Virus record (IMG/VR): IMGVR_UViG_2579778573_000005 | DNA from: a virus | Taxonomy: Duplodnaviria; Heunggongvirae; Uroviricota; Caudoviricetes | Strand: one strand, 5' to 3' | Length of the DNA: 44,005 bases | Shown here: positions 272 to 30,530 of the stretch, piece after piece | Layout of the letters: every line of letters begins with the position of its first letter | Numbering within the stretch: the stretch's first letter is position 1 | Position numbers and translations under genes: made by a program | The notes under the pieces: generated by a model | Told to the model about the DNA's origin: nothing | The model's input: only the letters and a program-made list of their open reading frames with translations | Database searches by the model: none

Positions 272-1045
272 CTACCTTGTCCGCAATTCTTTGATCTGCC
301 CAGTTGCTGTGTCGTGATATTTAATCAGATACGTCGGTTCCGGATTTTCGCCACCGCTACCACTATCGCCACTTTGTCCATTTCTCGAATAGCCCCAGCT
401 GGAGTTATCACGACGAGTTAGCGTGTAGTGCTGGAGCGGAGCACCGCTAACAGATTCGCCCGCGCCGCGCGGCAGGAATATCCAGTACCCGCCCGCGGGT
501 TTACTCACCGCATCGAATCTCGTTGCGAGCCGCGACATCAGGTGCATATCTGACTCGCCGACCTGATCGAGTTGCGTGATAACATTGTCTGCAAACCGCT
601 TTGATACGCGTGGTTTTAGCCCATTATCGCTCGCTATTGTCGCAACGATATCGCTGACAGTGACGTCGCTCCAGGAACGAGTCTTTTTGCTCTGAACTGT
701 CGGAGATCCTTTTGCTGCGTTCATCGGAGCCGCTTTTGCTGTGAAATCAACTACCCGGGGTTCACCGCCACTGCTAGCACCGTCAACGATGTATATCCCT
801 TTATCAATTATCTGATTACCGAAACCGAGCCCAATACTGATTTTTACTCCGCGGGCCGGAATTTTCAGAGTTTCAGAAACTATTGCTACGCGGAGTTCGT
901 CTGTCTGTTTACTGGAGCCGCCGTAATCTGTCAGCGTGATATTGATCAAACCTTTTCTTATTTTATCCGTGATGTTTTTATTATCAGCAGATATATAAAA
1001 ATTAGGTTTCCACGCCTCCACGCCAGTATTTACGTAATCACTCAT
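272..1045 (-). CDS. Phage tail protein D (P2 gpD-like), N-terminal ~257 codons
   Basis: Track ORF 257 aa; last gene of a P2-ordered tail operon; shorter than typical gpD (~350-390 aa). Confidence 0.55.
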   Translation of the reverse strand: MSDYVNTGVEAWKPNFYISADNKNITDKIRKGLINITLTDYGGSSKQTDELRVAIVSETLKIPARGVKISIGLGFGNQIIDKGIYIVDGASSGGEPRVVDFTAKAAPMNAAKGSPTVQSKKTRSWSDVTVSDIVATIASDNGLKPRVSKRFADNVITQLDQVGESDMHLMSRLATRFDAVSKPAGGYWIFLPRGAGESVSGAPLQHYTLTRRDNSSWGYSRNGQSGDSGSGGENPEPTYLIKYHDTATGQIKELRTR

Positions 1046-1048
1046 TCA

Positions 1049-1273
1049 TCAATCCCATAATTGCGTTTCTTTTTTAACCGGCTCTGGTTCGATATCTGGT
1101 AAAACAATTTTTTCTCCAGCACGAAACACGGCACACATATCCGTTACGCCGTAATTCGAAACCTGATATAAAACAGTCTCTGTCGTTTTTGACGCTCTCC
1201 CGTAGACCGCAAGGCAGATCTGATCGAGACGGTCACCGTCCCGTGTAGTGTATGTAATCATTTGGGGCCCCAT
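1049..1273 (-). CDS. Phage tail protein X-like small protein
   Basis: Track ORF 74 aa; resembles P2 gpX-type small tail proteins; sits between U and D. Confidence 0.5.
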   Translation of the reverse strand: MGPQMITYTTRDGDRLDQICLAVYGRASKTTETVLYQVSNYGVTDMCAVFRAGEKIVLPDIEPEPVKKETQLWD

Positions 1274-1434
1274 TAATTAAAAGGATTTCATAATGAGAAT
1301 TAATTTTAGTAGTCGGAGAGGTATTAGTATTTCGGCGTCAAAAAAAATACCATCAGGTTGTTTTACATTTATGTTCGTAGTTTTTTTTATTATTTTTATA
1401 CTTGTTAAGTGCTCTGGTAGCGCTTGATTTTGTA

Positions 1435-1863
1435 TTAATCTAGCGAAGCTCCATAATATTCGAGCGTGAGTGAAAAGTCCTGCGATTTAGGTGTTCCGCC
1501 CATCAAAAAGCTGTTTTGCGTTTCAGTTAGTTCTCGCAGCACCCAGTACCCTTTCACCTCCCCGGTCCCCAGCACTAGCTGCTGGGGTTCTCCCGTGTTC
1601 CCGAGCGCTCGCAAATCTGTCAACAGGCCGACGCCGCACCCGTCAAGAAATAAAGCGTTTATCTTTCCATCGATAGTAATTGTGGGGTTCGGTCGTCCGG
1701 TTATCTGCAACGCGTCGTTTTTCCCGAATCGTGTTTGCTGAGCCCAGCGCCAGGCGTCACTACGTTGCAGTTTGTTGTACGCTACTGTTGATATAGCAAA
1801 AATGAAATCACCCAGGCCGAGCATGATATCCTCAGCACCGTTTATTGCATCACTCATTGTCAC
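1435..1863 (-). CDS. Phage tail protein U-like
   Basis: Track ORF 142 aa immediately downstream of the tape measure gene, overlapping its stop. Confidence 0.5.
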   Translation of the reverse strand: MTMSDAINGAEDIMLGLGDFIFAISTVAYNKLQRSDAWRWAQQTRFGKNDALQITGRPNPTITIDGKINALFLDGCGVGLLTDLRALGNTGEPQQLVLGTGEVKGYWVLRELTETQNSFLMGGTPKSQDFSLTLEYYGASLD

Positions 1864-3500
1864 CCCGCCGCAGCTGGTTTATCAAACATCGCGCCACGAT
1901 TGTACGAACTCGCAGCCTGTCTCAGTCCATCGAGCACCCCCGACGCTGCAGATTGTTGTATTGACTGCGGATCTGTCGCACCGACAATATTGATTTCGAT
2001 TTTATTGTTTTGCTCCGGCGCAGGTGTCGAGACTGCCTGCTTCAACGTATCAATATTTAACGTCGACGAATCCAGTGCTGCAGGCGCGGTATTTTTATTT
2101 ACCATCCCGGATAATGGATTAACAAACGCGAGCATTGATTCTGCCTGAGATTTTGCCTGTTCTTGCCGTTCTGGATGCCGCATATTTTCGACAGCCTCTT
2201 CGGCTTTTGCCTTCGCAATATTATCAGCAGTCAATCCAGCGTTCGGTGAATATTTACCTCCCGAATCCATAAACTCTTGATATGCCCGATTATATTCGTC
2301 ATTATAAGTTTTCTGTTCTTCATCTGATTTTTCATCCGGAATAAGCCACTCCAGTTTCTTTACGACAGCCCATATAATCTTCCCGAATTTGACGCAACCT
2401 TCTCCAAAATTGACGATGCCATCCCACATTTTTTTCATATTTTCTGGTTTTACCCACTCAGTAATTGTGCTGACAAAACCACCCTGATTATCCTTAAACC
2501 AGGATGTAAATGTTTCACGTACTGAGTCAAACGTCGGCGCGAGTTCCCCCCCGATTTTACCGAGTGTATCTGCAAGTCCCGACGTAATAGAGCCCCACAG
2601 ATTTGTCACTGATACATGCGCACGCGCCGCCCCTTCCGCACCCTCTTTTGTTAACAAATTCGACTTTTGCGCGTCAGACATTGTCTGTTCCCAGCTTTTA
2701 CCCGTCGCCTTCATATACGTCATGATCTTATTAGCCTCGCCCCCCATGAGCTGGTCAGCGAGGCTCGCCGCTTGCTTCTCATCTTTCATTTCAGAGATGC
2801 GACGCATAACCTCATTAAACTGTTTTTCCCGATCCCAGCCAGCCATTCGTTTTTTCGTCAGGCCAATTTGAAATAACATGGGATTCAGGCTTTTTTCGTT
2901 TCCGATTTCGCCGATTTTATTTGTAAGTTCTTCAGACAAATCCCCGATATTTTCGCCGTTCAGGCCCGCGGCTTTACCAATATTTTCCCACGCAGCGTAT
3001 TTTTCGACGCCAACGCCGTAGGACTTCGCCAGACCGAGTTTTTCTGACGTCTCTGCATTCATTGCCAGCGCACCAGCTGCAGCACCGCCAATGAGCCCTG
3101 CCGCGCCAAGTGTCCCCCATTTGATACCCCGCCCCGTAGCCCTCACCGCACCTGCGGCGGCTCGTCCGCCCCATTTTGCAGCTCCTTTTGCGCGACCCGT
3201 CCACTTCTCCAGCCGCTGTTTTTTAGCAAGTTGAGTATTCAGCGCCTCCTGGTCCTGCGTTGTCGCTTTTATTCGACGGTCCAGCTTTTGATACTGAGCA
3301 GATAAATCAGAAACGTCTTTACCTGCCAGTTTCATTGCTGCGATTTTGTCTTTTAATTTATCCTGACTTTTCGTTAATTTCCCGACAGTAGACGACGTCT
3401 GCCGAATCGCATCATTGAGTTCTGTTGTACCGCGACGAAACGACGGGTCTATTCGCCCACCGAATACAACCTGCGTTTTAAAGTTTTGAGAAATAGCCAT
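1860..3500 (-). CDS. Tail tape measure protein
   Basis: Track ORF 546 aa; Gly/Ala-rich and coiled-coil-like segments; position between chaperone E and U. Confidence 0.65.
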   Translation of the reverse strand: MAISQNFKTQVVFGGRIDPSFRRGTTELNDAIRQTSSTVGKLTKSQDKLKDKIAAMKLAGKDVSDLSAQYQKLDRRIKATTQDQEALNTQLAKKQRLEKWTGRAKGAAKWGGRAAAGAVRATGRGIKWGTLGAAGLIGGAAAGALAMNAETSEKLGLAKSYGVGVEKYAAWENIGKAAGLNGENIGDLSEELTNKIGEIGNEKSLNPMLFQIGLTKKRMAGWDREKQFNEVMRRISEMKDEKQAASLADQLMGGEANKIMTYMKATGKSWEQTMSDAQKSNLLTKEGAEGAARAHVSVTNLWGSITSGLADTLGKIGGELAPTFDSVRETFTSWFKDNQGGFVSTITEWVKPENMKKMWDGIVNFGEGCVKFGKIIWAVVKKLEWLIPDEKSDEEQKTYNDEYNRAYQEFMDSGGKYSPNAGLTADNIAKAKAEEAVENMRHPERQEQAKSQAESMLAFVNPLSGMVNKNTAPAALDSSTLNIDTLKQAVSTPAPEQNNKIEINIVGATDPQSIQQSAASGVLDGLRQAASSYNRGAMFDKPAAAG

Positions 3501-3608
3501 CGATTTTCATGACCTCGTTTACATAGAAATTAAAAACCCGGTACGGCAGGTCCATTTGCGTATCGGGCGGGATGGCAAGTTTTTTCGCAATAAACGGAAT
3601 CAGAATAA

Positions 3609-3890
3609 CTATATCTGATGTCGGTCTTTCGGAGGCTTTACCAGTTCGTTAAATGCGGCCTCCATTTGATCGTAATCGCACGCAGGCAGTGCATATAAAT
3701 CCTCACGCTCCAGATTTGCCAGGCGCGCCAGCATTGTCGCTGTCCGCTCTTCAAGACCACTTTTATCGTTACTGAACATAATGCGGTCGCGTAATTTTGG
3801 TTCGCGAATAGTAATTGTATCGCGGCTCTCCCCCTTAATAATAAACGGGCGAGAGAGCGTAATAGTCATACTGTCTAATAATGATTCCAT
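3609..3890 (-). CDS. Tail assembly chaperone (P2 gpE-like)
   Basis: Track ORF 93 aa between tube and tape measure genes; a -1 frame extension ORF (3478-3648) overlaps its 3' end. Confidence 0.45.
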   Translation of the reverse strand: MESLLDSMTITLSRPFIIKGESRDTITIREPKLRDRIMFSNDKSGLEERTATMLARLANLEREDLYALPACDYDQMEAAFNELVKPPKDRHQI

Positions 3891-3902
3891 TTTATTTGCC
3901 TT

Positions 3903-4415
3903 TTAATATACATGGAGAATACGAGCAACGCCCGCAAGAACGTCAACACCATTAATTACTCGTTTCATTTTTGCAGGATGAATCTCGTAAATAATTTTTC
4001 CATTTTGAACTCGTTTATAATAGCTCGGCGCAATCGTTACTGATTGCCCAACTGCTGATTTTGAATCAGTCCCCTGCGCGTCATCAGTAATCGCCGTAAT
4101 AAGCCCCTCATATGTATCAATACGTTCAAAATTGACACCGTAATTGTCAGTATATGCACTTCGAATTTCGAACCTTGTTTTAGCACCTGGTATTAATCCC
4201 AAATACCCCATCACACCAGAATCGGAGCCAGAGACTTTAAAACTGGCTGACATTTTCTCCATTCCCCCGTCCAGAGTGATAGCTGTATCCATAGCGCCCG
4301 TCTTAAAATCATCTTCGATTATTTTCATATCGACGGGAGTGTATTCAGTGCAATTTAAAACTCGTTCTCCCTGGACGAACAACGCAAATGCACGATAGGT
4401 GTTACTATCTGCCAT
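3903..4415 (-). CDS. Tail tube protein (P2 FII-like)
   Basis: Track ORF 170 aa directly after the sheath gene. Confidence 0.6.
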   Translation of the reverse strand: MADSNTYRAFALFVQGERVLNCTEYTPVDMKIIEDDFKTGAMDTAITLDGGMEKMSASFKVSGSDSGVMGYLGLIPGAKTRFEIRSAYTDNYGVNFERIDTYEGLITAITDDAQGTDSKSAVGQSVTIAPSYYKRVQNGKIIYEIHPAKMKRVINGVDVLAGVARILHVY

Positions 4416-4432
4416 ATCAATTCTCCAGATTA

Positions 4433-5935
4433 TTAGACTGTTTCTTTAAAAAGAGAGGCCAGAGCTTCAACTGTGTAATCATTATTAATGCGGTACATTA
4501 ACGTAATTGTTTGTGCCGGGGATTTCGGTCCAAAGTCAACATTAATATAAAGATTACCAGCGGCCAGACTTTCTTTTGTATTTAACTCTTCATCTAACCA
4601 CGCCCGTCCTCCGTTAATCGCGCCCTGCTCCTCTAATTTATGCAGATACGCGTTTATCGACTCTACAACGTCTGTTCCGAGGTGCAGGTCTATCGGGCGA
4701 TCAATAAAATCGGTCATCATTGCCCGGGCTATTGAATCCTCAATTACGTCAGCTGTCCGACGAACGCATTCAAAGGACCATTGGGGACTGAGGCTACACA
4801 GATAGTTACCCCAGTGTCTGAATCCATCATAGCGAATAATTGTGCTGACCTGGCTGGCGTTCAGCAGATTTGCTGTGCAGTTCGTTTCACCGATTATAAA
4901 ATCATCGACTTGTTCGAGTCCTGTAATTCCGTAGATATTTTGATTCGATTTGCTCCACCAAAACCCTTTTTCGTTATCAATTCTGGCTCGTAAACCAGCA
5001 GCGATAGCTGAATACGGACGAGATAAACCACTAACATCACTCGTAGAATAAACACGAGGGCGCAGAATTTCCATTCTGCCGCCGTACCTCTGACGACGAT
5101 TTACAACGTCAGCAGGCGTAGCGCCTCGCGGTGAATCGATATATCCAACGCCTCGTAATTTATTTGTCACCACTTCAAGTTGTTCTGCAATATAATCGTT
5201 AGCACTATAATCTGGAGCGATTAAAATTCTCGGCGTTACTTGATTTATTTGCGCAGACGTCAACAATGCGTTAATCCCGTTAACGACGTTCTGCCGCATT
5301 TTTGTTTCGTCGCTGTCCTCTTCGACGCGGACAACAACAATAATGGCATCCTCCTGATTTAGTATTTCAGATACAGCGGGAGGAAGGGTTCCAGACCCAC
5401 CGAGCAATCCAGCTTTTTTTTGACTGCCTGCAATTAACGTCGGAACATTATATTTGAACGATTCGTCTTTACCACCGGATAAATTTGTTGGGGGGAGCGC
5501 GAATACAGTCCCCGTTCCTGCGTGATCACCACCGAATGTGACGTTAATATATTCTCCAATCTGGAGTCCTTCTTTATACTGCTGGTTCTGATCGTACATT
5601 TTTGACGGGGTCATGGCACCGTCCGTGATCATTGTTAATTTTCTCGAACCGTCGGGCAGTGTGCTGTATCCTGGAGTTGCTACATTCCCGTTAATTCCCA
5701 AATCAACAATTTCAACAATCCAGTTGTTTCCGTCGGCCCCTGGCATGACAGTCGAAAACTCAACAAGATTGTCTGCGAGCTCTGATCCCCATAATAGTGA
5801 TGCACAAGTTGGGTAGCTGGAATCGGGAGCAGTACCAACAATCCCAATCACGGAAATATCTACTGTGTTGATCTCTTTTGTGCCGTCGTCGTATTCGAGC
5901 GTGCGAATACCGTGTAAAAAATTAGTTACGCTCAT
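4433..5935 (-). CDS. Contractile tail sheath protein (P2 FI-like)
   Basis: Track ORF 500 aa; N-terminal region resembles P2 FI sheath. Confidence 0.8.
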   Translation of the reverse strand: MSVTNFLHGIRTLEYDDGTKEINTVDISVIGIVGTAPDSSYPTCASLLWGSELADNLVEFSTVMPGADGNNWIVEIVDLGINGNVATPGYSTLPDGSRKLTMITDGAMTPSKMYDQNQQYKEGLQIGEYINVTFGGDHAGTGTVFALPPTNLSGGKDESFKYNVPTLIAGSQKKAGLLGGSGTLPPAVSEILNQEDAIIVVVRVEEDSDETKMRQNVVNGINALLTSAQINQVTPRILIAPDYSANDYIAEQLEVVTNKLRGVGYIDSPRGATPADVVNRRQRYGGRMEILRPRVYSTSDVSGLSRPYSAIAAGLRARIDNEKGFWWSKSNQNIYGITGLEQVDDFIIGETNCTANLLNASQVSTIIRYDGFRHWGNYLCSLSPQWSFECVRRTADVIEDSIARAMMTDFIDRPIDLHLGTDVVESINAYLHKLEEQGAINGGRAWLDEELNTKESLAAGNLYINVDFGPKSPAQTITLMYRINNDYTVEALASLFKETV

Positions 5936-20170: not shown

Positions 20171-20650
20171 CTACGCTTCTGAGATAGATTTCTCAGCATT
20201 CACCAATGGAAGTGATTGTGGAACATCCGTTTGACCTGCTGGCCAGCGGTAGCCTGTTACGCGGGAACGAGGAAAAGCTTTGATATTTACTTCATCTGCC
20301 TGGTTGCCCCCCAAAATCATTAAATCCCCGGCGGCATTTTTCCCGACAACAAAGCCGACGTGACCACCGCCAGACCGAGACAGAATAGCAATGCATCCAT
20401 AGGCGGGTTCCTTCAGTTCATTACCCCAATCGAGATAAGAATTCGCAGACTCAAAACGCGTTGAGCGAATACCCGCACGTTCCAGCATTGCCCCGGTGAA
20501 AGCAGCGCACCACGGTGTTTCGTCATCCTTAATGCCGCCGCGTTTGATATCTTTCCAGTACTGCACAATTTCTGCAGCATGTTGCTTCCCTTTCATTTCC
20601 CGAATGCCGAGGTTTTTTCGAGCCTCGATTAGCCATTTAGGATCCGTCAT
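20171..20650 (-). CDS. Putative endolysin (cell-wall hydrolase)
   Basis: Track ORF 159 aa between holin-like genes and lipoprotein; Cys-containing PWCAAF motif. Confidence 0.45.
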   Translation of the reverse strand: MTDPKWLIEARKNLGIREMKGKQHAAEIVQYWKDIKRGGIKDDETPWCAAFTGAMLERAGIRSTRFESANSYLDWGNELKEPAYGCIAILSRSGGGHVGFVVGKNAAGDLMILGGNQADEVNIKAFPRSRVTGYRWPAGQTDVPQSLPLVNAEKSISEA

Positions 20651-20922
20651 TACCTGTCTCCTGTTATTTTTGAAATATTCCCTCGTGCCCGCCAGACAGC
20701 AATACAGATGGTGAGGTTGAGAAAGAACTCTGCGGGATCAACCTGCGTATATTTCCCGTAAAAAATTCGTAGGGCTATCCACGCAGCAGACAGAATCGCG
20801 AGGTAAGCAGTTAGTGAGATGAAAAAACGATAGCGGCCTGTTTTTTGAAAAAACATCAACCGTAGTGCCAACATCAGACAAATAATTGCATTGGCATTGA
20901 TGAGGACAGAGTGCAGGGTCAT
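20650..20922 (-). CDS. Holin/antiholin-like small membrane protein
   Basis: Track ORF 90 aa; hydrophobic segments; 1-nt overlaps with flanking genes. Confidence 0.45.
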   Translation of the reverse strand: MTLHSVLINANAIICLMLALRLMFFQKTGRYRFFISLTAYLAILSAAWIALRIFYGKYTQVDPAEFFLNLTICIAVWRARGNISKITGDR

Positions 20923-21305
20923 TATTTCATCCCCTTATCTGATTTCCATAAACGAGCTTGTGACATGATCCGCAACAGTGATGTAACGCTGATTACTGAT
21001 GCAACCAGTGCACCAATGGCGGGAGAGACTTTTACTGTTACGGGAGGGTTCAGGTGACTCAGCACCGCGTTCAGAATACCGGTAATGATGGCTGACGCTG
21101 TCTCAGCGCAATACACACCGCCAACAAACGAAATGAGTGCGAAAATAACCTGCTTCCAGAATCGATGCTGCCCGGACGACAACACATAGAGAGCTGCGCC
21201 TGCCAGCGCACAGATCATCACTGCAGGTGTTGCCTCAGGAAATAACGCAGCAAACGTCACCCCCGCCGAGCCAGCAGCAACGCCAGCGGTTAGAGGTTCA
21301 GACAT
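20922..21305 (-). CDS. Holin-like membrane protein
   Basis: Track ORF 20922-21386; likely start at internal ATG 21305 preceded by AGGAAA; three hydrophobic segments. Confidence 0.5.
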   Translation of the reverse strand: MSEPLTAGVAAGSAGVTFAALFPEATPAVMICALAGAALYVLSSGQHRFWKQVIFALISFVGGVYCAETASAIITGILNAVLSHLNPPVTVKVSPAIGALVASVISVTSLLRIMSQARLWKSDKGMK

Positions 21306-23383: not shown

Positions 23384-24025
23384 TTATTTATCACTCCTGT
23401 AAATTGGAATTAACCATTTTCTAATCGTCGACGCTGCAGGTGGGTCAGAGTATTTCGCCACAAAAATACCGGATATGTATTGCACGCCACGCGATAATGG
23501 CGCTGTCGGGTTTTCAGTAAAAAAACGATCAGCCAGTTCAATGGCTTCGCTTTTTAATCTGTGCTGTGGTCGTCCTCCGCCCTTTGTTCCCAGGTATCGC
23601 GCCAGTTGTTTGAAACGGTAGGCGATGATTAACGGTCGCATCATCATATTGAAAAAATCGCGGGCATCGTTGTCAGCGCCTTGCGCTATCAACAGTGCAA
23701 AAAACAGATACGGGATTATGTACACTTCAGGAGATATACGAACCCGTTCACAAGTTGGTGGAGCCAACTCAATAAGTAAGTCAGCCAGCGGATTCCCCTT
23801 TTCTCCACGTTTGTAATAGCGATACAGCGGCCCGATATCAAGTTCACTCACGTCGATTTCAGGATGCCCGGCAACGACTGTACGTATCTCTTCTGCCAGA
23901 GCGTCAAATATTGCCCCGGTCCGTTCAAGATAGAGCCTCCGGGTCGAACCGCGATCATCCAACGCCCGTAACATATCTAACCGGCTAACGAAAGTTTCAG
24001 GCCAGTCCTCATAGAAGGTTTTCAT
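23384..24025 (-). CDS. Hypothetical protein (213 aa)
   Basis: Track ORF 23384-24061 starts at GTG; internal ATG 24025 has a GAGGT RBS. Confidence 0.45.
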   Translation of the reverse strand: MKTFYEDWPETFVSRLDMLRALDDRGSTRRLYLERTGAIFDALAEEIRTVVAGHPEIDVSELDIGPLYRYYKRGEKGNPLADLLIELAPPTCERVRISPEVYIIPYLFFALLIAQGADNDARDFFNMMMRPLIIAYRFKQLARYLGTKGGGRPQHRLKSEAIELADRFFTENPTAPLSRGVQYISGIFVAKYSDPPAASTIRKWLIPIYRSDK

Positions 24026-24047
24026 AATTACCTCGAATAATAAAAAC

Positions 24048-24062
24048 TGCACTATTTGCACA
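24048..24062. promoter_or_regulatory. Palindromic operator-like site 1 (TGCA-C..TGCAC type)
   Basis: TGCACTATTTGCACA in the 5' region of the 213-aa gene. Confidence 0.35.
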
Positions 24063-24268: not shown

Positions 24269-24502
24269 ATGGGTACGTTAGGCAACCAGCCGTGCAGAAG
24301 TCGTTATGAGTTCGATGATTTTAATTTAGCCAATCGAGCTGCGGCTCTTACTAAGTTAGCAAAAGAAACTGGTGTATCGGTGGATACCTTAATCAAACTT
24401 GAAATTGCTATGCAACTGAATCGGCTCAACTCCATCCTTATCGAAAACGGTGACAAGATGGACGAGAATCTGGCAGGTATTGGCGAGATACTGCAGAAGT
24501 GA
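24269..24502 (+). CDS. Small putative HTH DNA-binding protein
   Basis: Track ORF 77 aa; GAGGAA RBS; helix-turn-helix-like LTKLAKETGVSVDTLIKLE. Confidence 0.35.
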   Translation: MGTLGNQPCRSRYEFDDFNLANRAAALTKLAKETGVSVDTLIKLEIAMQLNRLNSILIENGDKMDENLAGIGEILQK

Positions 24503-24811
24503 GAGTAGCCCCTCTTCTGAGGGGTTGCACATTTAAAATATTAAGGGCGGTCTTCTTCACGTACACAGTCACCTGGTCGAATCGTTCACGCATACTGAGT
24601 ACAAAAAATCTCAACGATAAGATCAGGTTAGACCTGTATTTTCCAGAAACATATAGACGCCTAAAAAAACACTAAACTCATGATTATCATGTATGTTTTT
24701 ACTGGAAACATTGAACCATCCACAATACAGCGTAAAAAGCAAGCAATTCACAAGATTTTAAAGTGATTTATCTGGAAGACTTTACTACTAACAGTTAATA
24801 TCGTACCAGAA

Positions 24812-24826
24812 GTGCAGAATTTGCAC
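24812..24826. promoter_or_regulatory. Palindromic operator-like site 2
   Basis: GTGCAGAATTTGCAC (perfect 5-5-5 inverted repeat) ~75 bp upstream of the peptidase gene. Confidence 0.4.
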
Positions 24827-24900
24827 TTTTACAGGAATGTGGTACGGAACATGCTGTCTATATTTCAACCAATAATCGTAATGCAGTAACTGGAGGAGCT

Positions 24901-25389
24901 ATGGCTACCAACCCAAGAGAGCACGCCCGGCGAGTGCTGGACACGTTCTGGTGCGGGCGTGGTTTCCCTGTTGATCCAGCGAAAATTGCTCACGACATGG
25001 GATTAGATGTTTTTATTACCGATCTTCCTGGGAAAGTTTCTGGCGCACTGATTAAACAAAAAGATCAAGATCCAGCGATCTTTCTAAACAGTGATGACAA
25101 CAAAGTTCGTCAACGTTTTTCATGTGGGCATGAGTTGGGGCATTACATCGCCCGGCAAGCATCGCATAGCGATGAATATGAGTACGTTGATTTACGTGGC
25201 GAAACCGCAAGCGCCGGAACGCATCCTGATGAAATTTTTGCAAACAAGTTCGCAGCAGAACTTCTGATGCCGGTAGATGAGGTCAGAAAACTGCACGCTG
25301 ACGGTCAACCAAGTTATATAATGGCGCATTATTTTGGCGTATCTGACGATGCGATGACTTATCGTTTAAAGAACTTGAGGTTGGGGTAA
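24901..25389 (+). CDS. ImmA/IrrE-family Zn-metallopeptidase (COG2856/DUF955-like)
   Basis: Track ORF 162 aa; HELGH (HEXXH) motif and downstream EIFANKFAAELLMP motif typical of ImmA/IrrE; GGAGGAG RBS. Confidence 0.8.
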   Translation: MATNPREHARRVLDTFWCGRGFPVDPAKIAHDMGLDVFITDLPGKVSGALIKQKDQDPAIFLNSDDNKVRQRFSCGHELGHYIARQASHSDEYEYVDLRGETASAGTHPDEIFANKFAAELLMPVDEVRKLHADGQPSYIMAHYFGVSDDAMTYRLKNLRLG

Positions 25390-25398
25390 CGCTTTAAA

Positions 25399-26004
25399 AT
25401 GCCATCGGATGACGATTTTAACAGCCGTTTCAAACAGGAAGTAGCACGCAGACTGAAGGATTCCCTCAACCTACACCGTCAGTTAGCAGAAGAGGTTGAG
25501 CCGGAGGACGATGAAACTCCGGTTCAGTCTCCTGACGAAGCTTCACCTCAGCCAAAGGTTTCGCACGCCCCCAAAAAAACGGCTGTCCGTATTCGCGGAA
25601 TAGCCAGAAAAAGAGCTGCCGAAGCTCGCAAAATGGCTGTAGCTGCGTCTAGCAAAAGAATTCCAACTGCTACACCCTCTCAACAAGTCACCCGTACTGA
25701 GAGTAAAATCTTGACCGAGTTCACATCTGTGAAACAGGTGAATTCACTTGATACCGAGCATGAGCGCAAACAACTCAACAACAAAGATTTTGAAGCAGAA
25801 ATCGCTCTAAAAAAACGATACGGGAAATGGTTCCTGATTATCCTTGCTTTCCAACTTCTGATAATGAATGGTGTATTTATTGCCGACGGCGCAGGTAAGC
25901 TGGAATTTGAGGATTTAACACTACAGTTGTACATGGGCGGTACTTTGACAGAGGTATTCGGCCTCGTGCTGGTCGTGACAAAATACCTTTTTAAACGCAA
26001 GTAA
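25399..26004 (+). CDS. Membrane-anchored protein, unknown function
   Basis: Track ORF 201 aa; 10 bp after the peptidase gene; charged N-terminal region, two C-terminal hydrophobic helices. Confidence 0.6.
   Translation: MPSDDDFNSRFKQEVARRLKDSLNLHRQLAEEVEPEDDETPVQSPDEASPQPKVSHAPKKTAVRIRGIARKRAAEARKMAVAASSKRIPTATPSQQVTRTESKILTEFTSVKQVNSLDTEHERKQLNNKDFEAEIALKKRYGKWFLIILAFQLLIMNGVFIADGAGKLEFEDLTLQLYMGGTLTEVFGLVLVVTKYLFKRK
25933..26004 (+). repeat. Direct repeat copy A (last 24 codons of the membrane protein gene)
   Basis: 72 bp, ~90% identical to 30609-30680. Confidence 0.8.
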
Positions 26005-26028
26005 CTCTCTCGGTCCAACAGTCTTTCG

Positions 26029-26050
26029 AAGGCCCTGATCAAAGGGCCTT
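26029..26050 (+). terminator. Hairpin after the peptidase/membrane-protein operon
   Basis: AAGGCCCT-GATCAA-AGGGCCTT, 8-bp stem; weak T content downstream. Confidence 0.4.
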
Positions 26051-26249
26051 GATAAATTAGCAGTGCGTTGAAAACAGATAGTTATTCCCATCAGTTCCAA
26101 CGTAATACACATCAAAAAAATCACCATTCTTTTGCTCTAACGTCAACACCTACCCTTAAAAAAATAATTCTCCAAGAATGAGAAAGTTATTGTGTGTATT
26201 AGATAAGATATGAGCTGACACATCTATGGCGTGGAGCCAAATTTAATAT

Positions 26250-26281
26250 GACAGTCCGCTCTGTGCCATAAGCGGACTGTC
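26250..26281. terminator. 10-bp perfect inverted repeat hairpin between convergent genes
   Basis: GACAGTCCGC ... GCGGACTGTC with 12-nt loop. Confidence 0.35.
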
Positions 26282-26466
26282 AATAAACAGATTCACTTGT
26301 AAATCTTGAAGCTATACATATTTACTTTCAATGATAAATAAAAGAACTATCCAAAAATCACTGAGAGCATATTTTAACTAACCCTCCGCTACTATTAACA
26401 TAAATTTCACCCAACCATAATTAAATTGATACATATAGCAACTTACCTTGATACGAATCATCTGGG

Positions 26467-27165
26467 TTATATTTTTCCATATTTTTTTCCGTCAAATCGA
26501 ATCATGCCAGGATCAAGAAAATTAATTAAATCGATTAACGCGTGCTGTATTCTGATTAGCCTTTCTTTATAAATTCCGATATCTCTTGTCATATTTATCA
26601 CTTCATTGTTTAAATCTAAAAAAAATGGCTCATTGATAAAGCAATTTTCCTTTGTGAAACTGCCGTAACCTATGCAATCAAATCCAGTATCTGTTGATAT
26701 CAGCATCTTTTCTGCAATAGCTCTCTGCTCTCCTATGAAAAACATAAAATACTGACCAAAGACGTCTGTTTGGATTAATGAGTTAATATTGTTCTGTAAT
26801 CTAATAAACTCCCTCATTTTTTTATTTTTTTCTAGGCTAAGGTATTGAATGTCTATGCGGGCAGCTTCTGTCCATGCAAAAAACTGGGAAAAAAGAAAAA
26901 CAGTATTGTTGATAACATAATCTTGTTGGCGCTTATTCCCATTATGATAAAACTCTTCAATGAACCCCAATTCTAATATATTATAAATACGGCTTTGTAA
27001 GTCTGAAGCTGAGCGAATTAACGGTTCAATATAGTACTGATGTTTTCTCCTTACATCCAGTGATTCATTGAGCTTGTTTATTCTATTCTGATTATAAGTA
27101 GATATAGCAATAGAGATTATAGCTATTGCACCACTAATAAAGCTTGAAATTAATGCCGTACCCAT
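26467..27165 (-). CDS. AT-rich gene for N-terminally membrane-anchored protein, unknown function (accessory candidate)
   Basis: Track ORF 232 aa; one N-terminal hydrophobic helix; markedly lower GC than flanking phage genes. Confidence 0.55.
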   Translation of the reverse strand: MGTALISSFISGAIAIISIAISTYNQNRINKLNESLDVRRKHQYYIEPLIRSASDLQSRIYNILELGFIEEFYHNGNKRQQDYVINNTVFLFSQFFAWTEAARIDIQYLSLEKNKKMREFIRLQNNINSLIQTDVFGQYFMFFIGEQRAIAEKMLISTDTGFDCIGYGSFTKENCFINEPFFLDLNNEVINMTRDIGIYKERLIRIQHALIDLINFLDPGMIRFDGKKYGKI

Positions 27166-28305
27166 CTAAAAGTCCTTTGATTCTTGCTTGGTTAACAAAA
27201 TGACATAATTTTATTTAATGCCATAACAACTTAACAATATATCATAATATGATTATTATGGTGTAGCTTGTCGCATCTACGCTCCATTACAAACAGATGT
27301 AAGATATAACCTATATGTTTTAGCCAGCAAATTCGAAAGCATTCAAAGTAGTCTCATCGAACTCTCGAAACCCTATGTCTTCGGGTATAAAATATTTAAA
27401 TCCATTTGCATAATATCGACTCATGTTTATTATATTCTCCCCATTCACCATTAAGATTTGACATTATTTTCAACAATCGGTTATTGCAAGATTGAAATAT
27501 ATTTTTACTTGACACAATATTCCATGTAGCCCAGCGATTCGACTTACCCCCAACTATACGGACAATCTAAATTAAATCGATGATTTTTTGATACATTCTC
27601 CTCTCTCCATTACTTTATGTTTTTGTTCCCCAAAAATACCTTGCTCTCTAAAAAATAATTGTTCTTTAAGTTCAAAATCGAGATCTACATGAGCGTTAGA
27701 TACAAAGCTAATATGTTGAAATGTCTTTCCCCCCCCCATAACGGCATTGTTATCTAAACTATGTTACACAAATATAATATTACCCTTTCAACGTAATCCA
27801 AGAATAAGATTAATGCCATTATATATATCATAAATATGATATTTTGTATATTTTTATCATTTAGCCTTGATTGTACTAGGTGTACTCTCAACGAAGTAGG
27901 GAAAGTCTGTTCCTCGCTCACAGCTGCCCTTCAGTAAGCGAAAAAATGCCTACTCGGTGCCATATACAGCCATTGTTATTAACAGCAGGGAATAATTCAA
28001 AACTGAAATTAAATATCTACCTTTTACAGTAGAAATAGTTCCTCCAGGACACTATCCATTGCCGGGCACAATCACTCGGGGTATAACGATATAAAATATG
28101 TTCATGATAGTGCAGGTTCGTATATTAAGTTCAGCAGCGAAAACATGCCTTACAGGTTTCCGGTTTTGGGAGCGTCGTTACAGGATCCTGCGCATACCGT
28201 TCCCATCTGTTGAATTAAAGGTTTCACAGCCTTTGCCGATATCACCTTTTACCTTACCTGTGATGCGTTCAGTGCTGAAGTGGTCAACAAAAACTGGCCA
28301 CCGAG

Positions 28306-29453
<1,148 letters not shown>

Positions 29454-29606
29454 TATGGCACCTGTGTTGTTCTGAGGTGAGCATATCACCTCTGTTCAGG
29501 TGGCCAAATTCAGTAAACCACTTCATGCTCAGCGTTGTTTACTGTAGCTCTCGGGACTGATTACAGACCGCGTCTTAAAAACCAATCCTTACTCTAAAGG
29601 GAATTC

Positions 29607-30530
29607 ATGAGATTAAAATACTCAGTACTCTTACTCGCCATTGCCCTTACAGGCTGTGATAACAAAAAAGATGAGATCGGTTGTTCTTCGGAAATAACCC
29701 AGTCAGCTCTCATGGATTTATTAAAAAAATCTGCTTATGAAGGACTCTCTGAACAGGTCGATAAATACCCTGATGTCACTAATCAGACCAAACGAAGCAC
29801 ACTGGACAAGATCAAACTAGCCATCTCTGAGATCTCCACAACATCAAGTGACACGGGCAGCACAATGAAAACTTGTGAAGGGACCGTGACGATGACTCTA
29901 TCTGCGAACGAGTACGTCCAGCTTTCAGATGCTTACAGAAAGAATTTTAATCGTAATCTCGATAAGCAAATGGAAAGCCTGTTTTTGGAGAACAACGCAA
30001 ACGCCTTTTCAAAACGTATCACCTACACCGTGCAGGCGACCGACGATCAGAAAAACGTTTTTGTAAAAACCTCTACTGATAATCCGATATCAGTGGGCGC
30101 CGCTTTACTGACATCGCTTTCCATTATCACCCCGATCGTTGAGCAGCAGAAAATCCAGCAGGCTAAGGATGCCCAACAGAGTCAAATTGAAGCGGAACAA
30201 CAGGTGCAACTCAGGGCGCAAGAACAGGCTAAGTATGAGGCGGAGAAGCAAATAGAGAGACAGGCACAACTTCAGCCGCAAAAAGCTGACAACCTTGATC
30301 AGTCCCGAATGGCATTTGCGAATGCCGACTCTGATTTGAGTACCGTCTGGAGCAAGTTAACCCCGGCGAAGAAAAAAGATTTGCTGCCTTCTCAGCGTCA
30401 GTGGATCAAAACTAAGGATGCTATGTGCGGTAAAGTTTCAATGCAGGGAACAGATGCTGAAGTCAAGAAAATGGTCGACTGCCAGACGCAAATGACCCTT
30501 TCAAGAATCGCTTTCCTCAGAAACCAATAA
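29607..30530 (+). CDS. Lipoprotein with DUF1311 (LprI-like) C-terminal domain
   Basis: Track ORF 307 aa; signal peptide with LTGC lipobox; Gln-rich coiled region; C-terminal QRQWIK..DAMCG..VDCQ pattern. Confidence 0.55.
   Translation: MRLKYSVLLLAIALTGCDNKKDEIGCSSEITQSALMDLLKKSAYEGLSEQVDKYPDVTNQTKRSTLDKIKLAISEISTTSSDTGSTMKTCEGTVTMTLSANEYVQLSDAYRKNFNRNLDKQMESLFLENNANAFSKRITYTVQATDDQKNVFVKTSTDNPISVGAALLTSLSIITPIVEQQKIQQAKDAQQSQIEAEQQVQLRAQEQAKYEAEKQIERQAQLQPQKADNLDQSRMAFANADSDLSTVWSKLTPAKKKDLLPSQRQWIKTKDAMCGKVSMQGTDAEVKKMVDCQTQMTLSRIAFLRNQ

Follow-up and report, generated by a model that had tools for sequence, protein, structure and literature searches.

The DNA analysed here (referred to below as the window; 44,005 nt) is part of an Escherichia coli lambdoid prophage. 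A single AT-rich gene on its minus strand, at 26467-27165, raises the question of what kind of protein it encodes and whether that protein is anti-phage cargo, as was suggested by the first-pass annotation, which proposed an abortive-infection or exclusion function. The product is listed as PHROG 5606 and by NCBI as 'lysogenic protein' or as a hypothetical protein (WP_000536231). Literature searches with the protein accession, the PHROG identifier and the record identifier did not find a functional study. The features of the locus used in the analysis are as follows.

26195..27924, no strand assigned: AT-rich cassette of 1.73 kb, in common with the insert at the Z/fun locus of P2-EC58 (blastn, 86% nucleotide identity).
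26249..26282, minus strand: terminator-like hairpin with a 13-bp stem and an 8-nt loop (flagged on the strand of the gene; folding compared with shuffles; stem kept in P2-EC58).
26467..27165, minus strand: CDS for an N-terminally anchored all-alpha protein of 232 aa (ORF with ATG start, dN/dS, homologues, AF2 model).
27097..27159, minus strand: single TM helix, codons 3-23, with small residues S7/S8, S11/G12, A15, S18 and S22 (hydropathy).
27173..27177, minus strand: ribosome-binding site AAGGA, 7 nt before the ATG (sequence reading; the depositors of AJ512683 mark an RBS at the equivalent place).
27208..27237, minus strand: promoter-like TTGTTA-18-TAAAAT between the pseudogene and the CDS (consensus scan; weak, a candidate).
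27320..27739, minus strand: pseudogene remnant of a protein of ~150 aa (tblastn of an intact Pseudoalteromonas homologue; in-frame stops).

The ORF lies in a low-GC tract (approximately 26000-28000, 31.6-34.8% GC) and has a GC content of 32.0%, compared to 48.3% for the window, in agreement with the earlier observation that it is far below the level of its neighbours. As stop codons are frequent at low GC (an estimated 0.076 per codon at the composition of this ORF), 232 open codons would be improbable by chance (~1e-8). The dN/dS between the window CDS and the P2-EC58 copy (ORF1) is 0.25, hence the protein is under purifying selection. Together with the ATG start and hundreds of homologues, this establishes the 232-codon ORF that had been predicted as a genuine gene under purifying selection.

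The order of genes along the window, as in SK1144, is portal, terminase, lysis genes, Q, DUF1364/DUF1367, the island, ORF6N, replication genes and cI/cro-like regulators, and the cassette is found in the nin region, with Q on one side and the replication/nin genes on the other. A 1.4-kb segment that includes the gene is present in 425 of 5,426 complete E. coli genomes (~8%), and in 409 of the 425 it is at least 99% identical. A lambdoid prophage with the nin-region moron island was found in ~410 of the 5,426 genomes.

Several other features surround the cassette. A 225-aa ORF (23384-24061, minus strand; PHROG 5215) is located between the nin genes and a peptidase operon; it is listed as hypothetical in SK1144 and is without a family assignment. 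The peptidase operon (24269-26004) is on the plus strand, opposite to the AT-rich gene as had been noted previously, and is convergent with it. Its three genes encode a 77-aa protein (PHROG 5550), a 162-aa ImmA/IrrE metallopeptidase that matches the PADLOC capP (E 2.4e-25) and RmrA models, and a 201-aa protein (PHROG 5346) with a C-terminal hydrophobic segment. The operon is reminiscent of protease-controlled modules of the CapH/CapP type and may include a membrane effector. It was not considered to be part of the cassette, as the segment shared with P2-EC58 excludes it. An IS911-like element of the IS3 family is present at 28276-29525 (OrfA, 29151-29489; OrfB, 28306-29124; both on the minus strand), with imperfect terminal inverted repeats of 27 nt and a 3-bp target duplication, TGC. 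It is 82 bp upstream of an LprI-family gene and is missing from this site in SK1144. The LprI-family gene (29607-30530, plus strand; PHROG 5094) encodes a lipoprotein-like protein of 307 aa whose C-terminal domain is of the LprI (lysozyme inhibitor) type (Pfam E 4e-7), and is a possible lysogenic-conversion or lysis-protection gene.

The sole match in the phage collection was GenBank accession number AJ512683 (L011), entitled 'Bacteriophage P2-EC58 proviral Z-region, ORF1, putative lysogenic protein', and this title is the source of the NCBI family name. Positions 33-1762 of AJ512683 align by blastn with 26195-27924 of the window at 86% identity, and hence a 1.73-kb cassette is common to P2-like and lambdoid prophages. 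When calculated per 100 nt, the two copies are 88-98% identical in the CDS, but in the 760 nt upstream the identity is only 68-84%. The P2-type copy was found in four complete genomes, which represent a single prophage lineage, and is between the tail-fibre assembly and tail-sheath genes, i.e. in the Z/fun hotspot. Z/fun of P2 blocks T5. The cassette resembles Z/fun and other single-gene cargo of the P2 hotspots in its exact position, and also in being AT-rich, with a conserved hairpin and, in the P2-EC58 record, an annotated promoter. However, the window copy differs in being in a lambdoid nin region, and no obvious relatedness to Z/fun itself was apparent. As a variable insert of atypical base composition between conserved phage genes, the cassette has the properties of hotspot cargo (morons), and it is a clean case of one cargo found in two types of phage, having moved between Z/fun of P2 and a lambdoid nin region.

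At the tin/old hotspot (938-4927), the P2-EC58-type prophage in E. coli GDAR2-2 (L101) has retron Ec48 as well as an Abi-P2-like polymerase, and at Z/fun (20315-21013) it has the solo TM gene. Retron Ec48 consists of an RT and an effector membrane protein, and this 33-kb phage holds three candidate or known defence cargos.

The cassette includes candidate signals for a transcription unit of its own. The hairpin downstream of the CDS (dG -23.9 kcal/mol; z = -4.5 relative to dinucleotide shuffles) is significant, and its stem is conserved in the P2-EC58 copy. A perfect inverted repeat of 10 bp had been reported at 26250-26281; it exists, but the stem is longer than described, with 13 bp at 26249-26282. 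The hairpin is 185 nt from the stop codon of the CDS and its T-tail is weak, and a role as terminator of the CDS is plausible. Promoter-like sites are no commoner in the region than in shuffled sequences, and the site at 27208-27237 is therefore only a candidate.

The gene had been described as a lone gene. This is only partly right, as the cassette holds a second, decayed gene upstream on the same strand (27320-27739). An intact homologue from Pseudoalteromonas (L099, 5001-5462) used as a tblastn query matched 27727-27335 of the window (E 7e-5), and the translation of the window copy contains several in-frame stops, with the FDLG...VECK (D...ECK) segment destroyed. Two small ORFs in this region, 27320-27451 and 27572-27739, are same-frame fragments of this one pseudogene and were rejected as real genes. 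Intact homologues of ~150 aa were found on a Pseudoalteromonas plasmid (L099), where the gene is annotated, and on a Methylobacter plasmid (L100, ~5001-5417), where the ORF is not. A 63-residue ORF upstream of a homologue of the TM gene with 85% identity (L093) matches the N-terminus of these intact proteins. The upstream gene is also frameshifted in P2-EC58 and L093, and is broken differently in each. Searches of Pfam, PADLOC and PDB with this ~150-aa family gave no match; the FDLG...VECK motif could be read as possibly PD-(D/E)xK nuclease-like. As the gene was not found with any other member of the TM family in the contexts surveyed, we treated it as a decayed hitch-hiker and not as a partner. 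A search of the 760-nt upstream region against Rfam gave no meaningful ncRNA match, and a decayed RT-nitrilase gene upstream of the CDS was rejected because tblastn returned nothing.

What, then, is the 232-aa protein? Pfam, NCBIfam and PDB sequence searches gave no match, and when all 80 members of the family alignment were compared to Pfam, only noise was recovered (e.g. CsgF, E 0.002). However, relatives are numerous. A word-indexed search found at least 290 homologous clusters at 90% identity, and a profile search of 1.84 billion representatives (50% identity) found 1,924 at E <= 1e-3, with 433 of these at E <= 1e-30. When one genome per species was scanned, relatives were present in 268 genome DNA stretches, from which 80 loci were kept, in Proteobacteria, Acidobacteriota, Cyanobacteria, Bacteroidota, Actinomycetota, Nitrospirota and other phyla. 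The family is very large, occurs in many phyla, is unnamed and stands alone.

Across the 80 sequences, 20 positions, mostly polar, are invariant (P47, L48, D54-L-Q-S-R58, Y82, Q93, E99, R102, G144-E-Q-R-A148, Q206 and L216-D-P218), and A14 in the TM helix is nearly so. Residues ~3-23 are the sole hydrophobic segment detected by hydropathy in the 232 aa. The AF2 model is confident (pLDDT 87.6, pTM 0.80) and all-alpha, with a long helix that runs from the membrane anchor to approximately residue 64, a five-helix bundle and one small beta-hairpin. This agrees with the single N-terminal hydrophobic helix and soluble domain that had been proposed. Family-wide, K/R residues average 0.31 ahead of the helix, compared to 2.46 in the 15 residues that follow it; this positive-inside bias predicts an N-out/C-in topology, with the conserved domain facing the cytoplasm. 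The small residues along one face of the TM helix could form an oligomerization surface.

Among the top fold matches to the predicted model, ClyA, Cry6Aa, SmhA and HblL1 recur, and the ClyA-family alpha-pore-forming toxins are similar in having a long helical bundle and a small beta-hairpin. An assignment as a HEPN ribonuclease (R-x(4-6)-H) was rejected; R201-x5-H207 is present, but many members have N or Q in place of H207 and the column is not conserved. There are also rare fusions. P0132 (622 aa) and P0134 (557 aa) have a C-terminal extension of ~300 aa with weak trypsin-like similarity (NAL1/chymotrypsin), including a GDSGS motif in P0132 and GDVGS at the same stretch in P0134, and P0207 (328 aa) includes a LuxR-type HTH (GerE, E 1.9e-8). 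These fusions hint that the conserved domain may serve other outputs as a membrane-tethering or sensing module.

A family could not be assigned by eye in the first-pass annotation, and the protein does lack a Pfam or NCBIfam family. However, profile searching, one of the checks proposed there, reveals remote but statistically well-supported homology to RTasTM, the RT-associated TM protein. The RT-nitrilase plus 1TM (UG5-large) system of E. coli E101 has been validated by experiment as an anti-phage system (Rousset et al. 2022, PMC9122126). UG5-large and UG1 RT-nitrilase genes are sometimes followed downstream by a gene for a TM protein (clusters 85/1858), which the E101 system requires (Mestre et al. 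2022, PMC9226505). DRT11 and most DRT1 RT-nitrilase systems work without a TM partner, and it has been speculated that the partner, when present, is a channel-like effector (PMC13436386, PMC13275509).

In PADLOC, residues 71-204 of the window protein align with positions 86-212 of the 229 in the RTasTM profile (22.4 bits, E 1.8e-5). All 80 family members match RTasTM model PDLC03799 (best E 2.8e-12) and 66 of the 80 match PDLC03013; both models are of the E101 type. The sequence of the E101 1TM protein was taken from Table S2A of Rousset et al. 2022 (PMC9122126), and comparison of the family profile with it using hhalign gave 95.9% (E 6e-9). Against a profile built from 19 homologues of the E101 1TM protein, the values were 96.3% and 1.5e-9, with 141 collinear, in-register columns. 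In addition to this collinearity, the two groups share a length of ~230 aa, a single N-terminal TM helix and the motifs Y-x-I-N/D-x-T-x-F-x-x-x-Q-Y/F-F-x-W...R, E-Q-R/K-x-I-G-E and C-I/M-G/S-Y. Phage or satellite hotspots harbour both groups, and so does one smpB-linked island of Pantoea (RnfH - cyclase - SmpB - island), which contains the RT (957 aa) and TM genes in one genome (L092, 3135-6699), with the RT gene overlapping the TM gene, and a solo gene of the TM family in another (L095, 7001-7714).

The differences are also clear. True RTasTM members (PDLC03013/PDLC03799; Mestre cluster 1858) score 350-540 bits over their full length on the family model, and a tblastn search with the 957-aa Pantoea RT gave no match (E <= 1) to the window or to ~90 other loci. 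The low score of 22 bits and the lack of an RT nearby place the window protein outside RTasTM proper. Identity to the solo family in the hhalign alignment is only ~19%, D54-L-Q-S and E99, which are invariant in the solo family, are not retained in the E101 protein, and the solo gene is not adjacent to an RT-nitrilase gene. The RT-linked clade is also small (29 clusters, all from Enterobacterales), in contrast to the very large, multi-phylum solo family. Judged by these profile comparisons, the window protein is a remote homologue of RTasTM and not a member of it, and RTasTM appears to be a minor branch next to an unnamed, stand-alone family of very large size. This link between the solo family and the RT-associated TM protein is new here; a paper describing it was not found in the literature. 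A second small TM companion of RT-nitrilases, Drt1b (Mestre cluster 85), which adjoins ~18% of DRT1/UG1 RT-nitrilase genes and has been speculated to be a membrane effector or channel (PMC13275509), is alike in concept. However, of the 80 family members only 1 reaches the PADLOC Drt1b model (E 0.005), and the window protein does not match it.

The genomic context of the family gives a mixed picture. Clustering of all ORFs within 4 kb of the gene at the 80 loci did not identify a conserved partner; apart from ORFs overlapping the gene itself, no neighbour family was present in more than 7 loci. Immediate neighbours across the 80 species are mostly housekeeping genes (ALAD, carboxylases, amidohydrolases), with ALAD in 5 loci. 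Only approximately 10 of 139 immediate neighbours had a strong PADLOC match (JukB, MkoA/MkoC, DolB, Hhe, pVip, PDC-S/M), a raw count, and a defence-gene neighbourhood across the 80 species is suggestive at best. The copies in Enterobacterales are consistently in mobile or variable DNA. That in Providencia is in a P2-like prophage, adjoining DUF2971 and an AAA_15 ATPase. Another shares an AlpA island with a gene of the DUF4238 family, for which a defence role has been validated (Rousset et al., PMC9122126), and one is a small insertion between smp and serB. A xanthomonad copy adjoins SIR2-HerA.

The proposal that the gene is abortive-infection or exclusion cargo therefore fares only partly well. 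The homology to RTasTM, the Z/fun hotspot and the AAA_15, DUF4238 and SIR2-HerA neighbours are in its favour, but the protein is outside RTasTM proper, related RT-nitrilase systems do not need a TM partner, and the neighbours of the family are mostly housekeeping genes. On balance, we tentatively favour the window gene as a candidate for an autonomous, membrane-tethered, cytoplasm-facing anti-phage sensor/effector. As a mobile cargo of temperate phages, it would be expressed from the prophage as a stand-alone inner-membrane protein, anchored by the N-terminal helix with a very short N-terminus outside and a helical bundle of ~200 residues in the cytoplasm. The invariant polar set (D54-L-Q-S-R58, E99/R102, G144-E-Q-R-A148, Q206 and D217-P218) may recognize a phage-derived cue, after which the small-residue face of the TM helix would drive self-association and compromise the membrane. 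The infection would then be aborted, or the incoming phage excluded or blocked at an early step, and the lysogen population protected. In RT-nitrilase systems, the homologous module would instead be switched by the RT partner. An extension of this reading, which we consider somewhat doubtful, is that the whole family is a phylum-spanning class of autonomous membrane-tethered immune proteins that sense phage via the cytoplasmic domain, and that the UG5-large RT-nitrilase recruited one branch as its effector.

The alternative that survives best, though we judge it unlikely, is a membrane-tethered protein with no part in defence (e.g. an envelope, stress or regulatory protein) that is a phage passenger in Enterobacterales, with the RT systems having borrowed a relative as an anchor. 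The occurrence of the family as a singleton in Acidobacteriota, Cyanobacteria, Proteobacteria, Actinomycetota and Bacteroidota, mostly beside housekeeping genes, fits such a role, as do the occasional fusions to a LuxR HTH and a weakly trypsin-like domain, which are not classic defence effectors. Against this, the location of the enterobacterial copies is consistently in phage hotspots or islands, and the only characterized homologue is a defence component. AT-rich cassettes common to unrelated phages, here P2-like and lambdoid, are also typical of accessory conflict genes.

Superinfection exclusion, in which the protein would block DNA entry or an early membrane step without killing the host, as other inner-membrane exclusion proteins of prophages do, seems improbable. 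It would suit a single prophage gene that lacks an enzymatic domain, is found where P2 carries Z/fun and is predicted to encode an inner-membrane protein. Against it, most of the protein is predicted to lie in the cytoplasm and not in the periplasm, the family is far broader than any exclusion factor specific for a phage receptor, and no similarity to the Sie, Imm or Cor families was detected in PHROGs or Pfam. The least probable of the alternatives is that the gene was orphaned from a pair of genes, the other of which encoded a small nuclease-like protein, or needs an RT in trans (e.g. Abi-P2 in P2-EC58), and is inert alone: the ~150-aa pseudogene is directly upstream in all three E. coli-type cassettes, the P2-EC58-type prophage also holds an Abi-P2-like RT and retron Ec48, and the only characterized homologue works with an RT, but the CDS has stayed under purifying selection as the upstream gene decayed, the latter is missing from all other family contexts, the RT search described above was empty for the window and the ~90 other loci, and the co-occurrence in P2 reflects one prophage lineage in 4 genomes.

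Returning to the preferred reading of an autonomous sensor/effector, its consequences depend on whether the solo protein is active. If it is inactive, what has been found is a large unnamed domain, and 'lysogenic protein' is a historical label only. If it is active, it would represent a new compact single-gene defence or exclusion family, present in ~8% of complete E. coli genomes and widespread across phyla, and would offer a handle on the role of the TM protein, the least understood part of RT-nitrilase (DRT1/UG5) systems, and on whether it can work independently of the RT. Should the family as a whole prove to be an autonomous immune class, DRT-type systems would have a self-sufficient module as their TM partner, and the ~1,900 solo clusters would amount to a defence system that has gone unrecognized.
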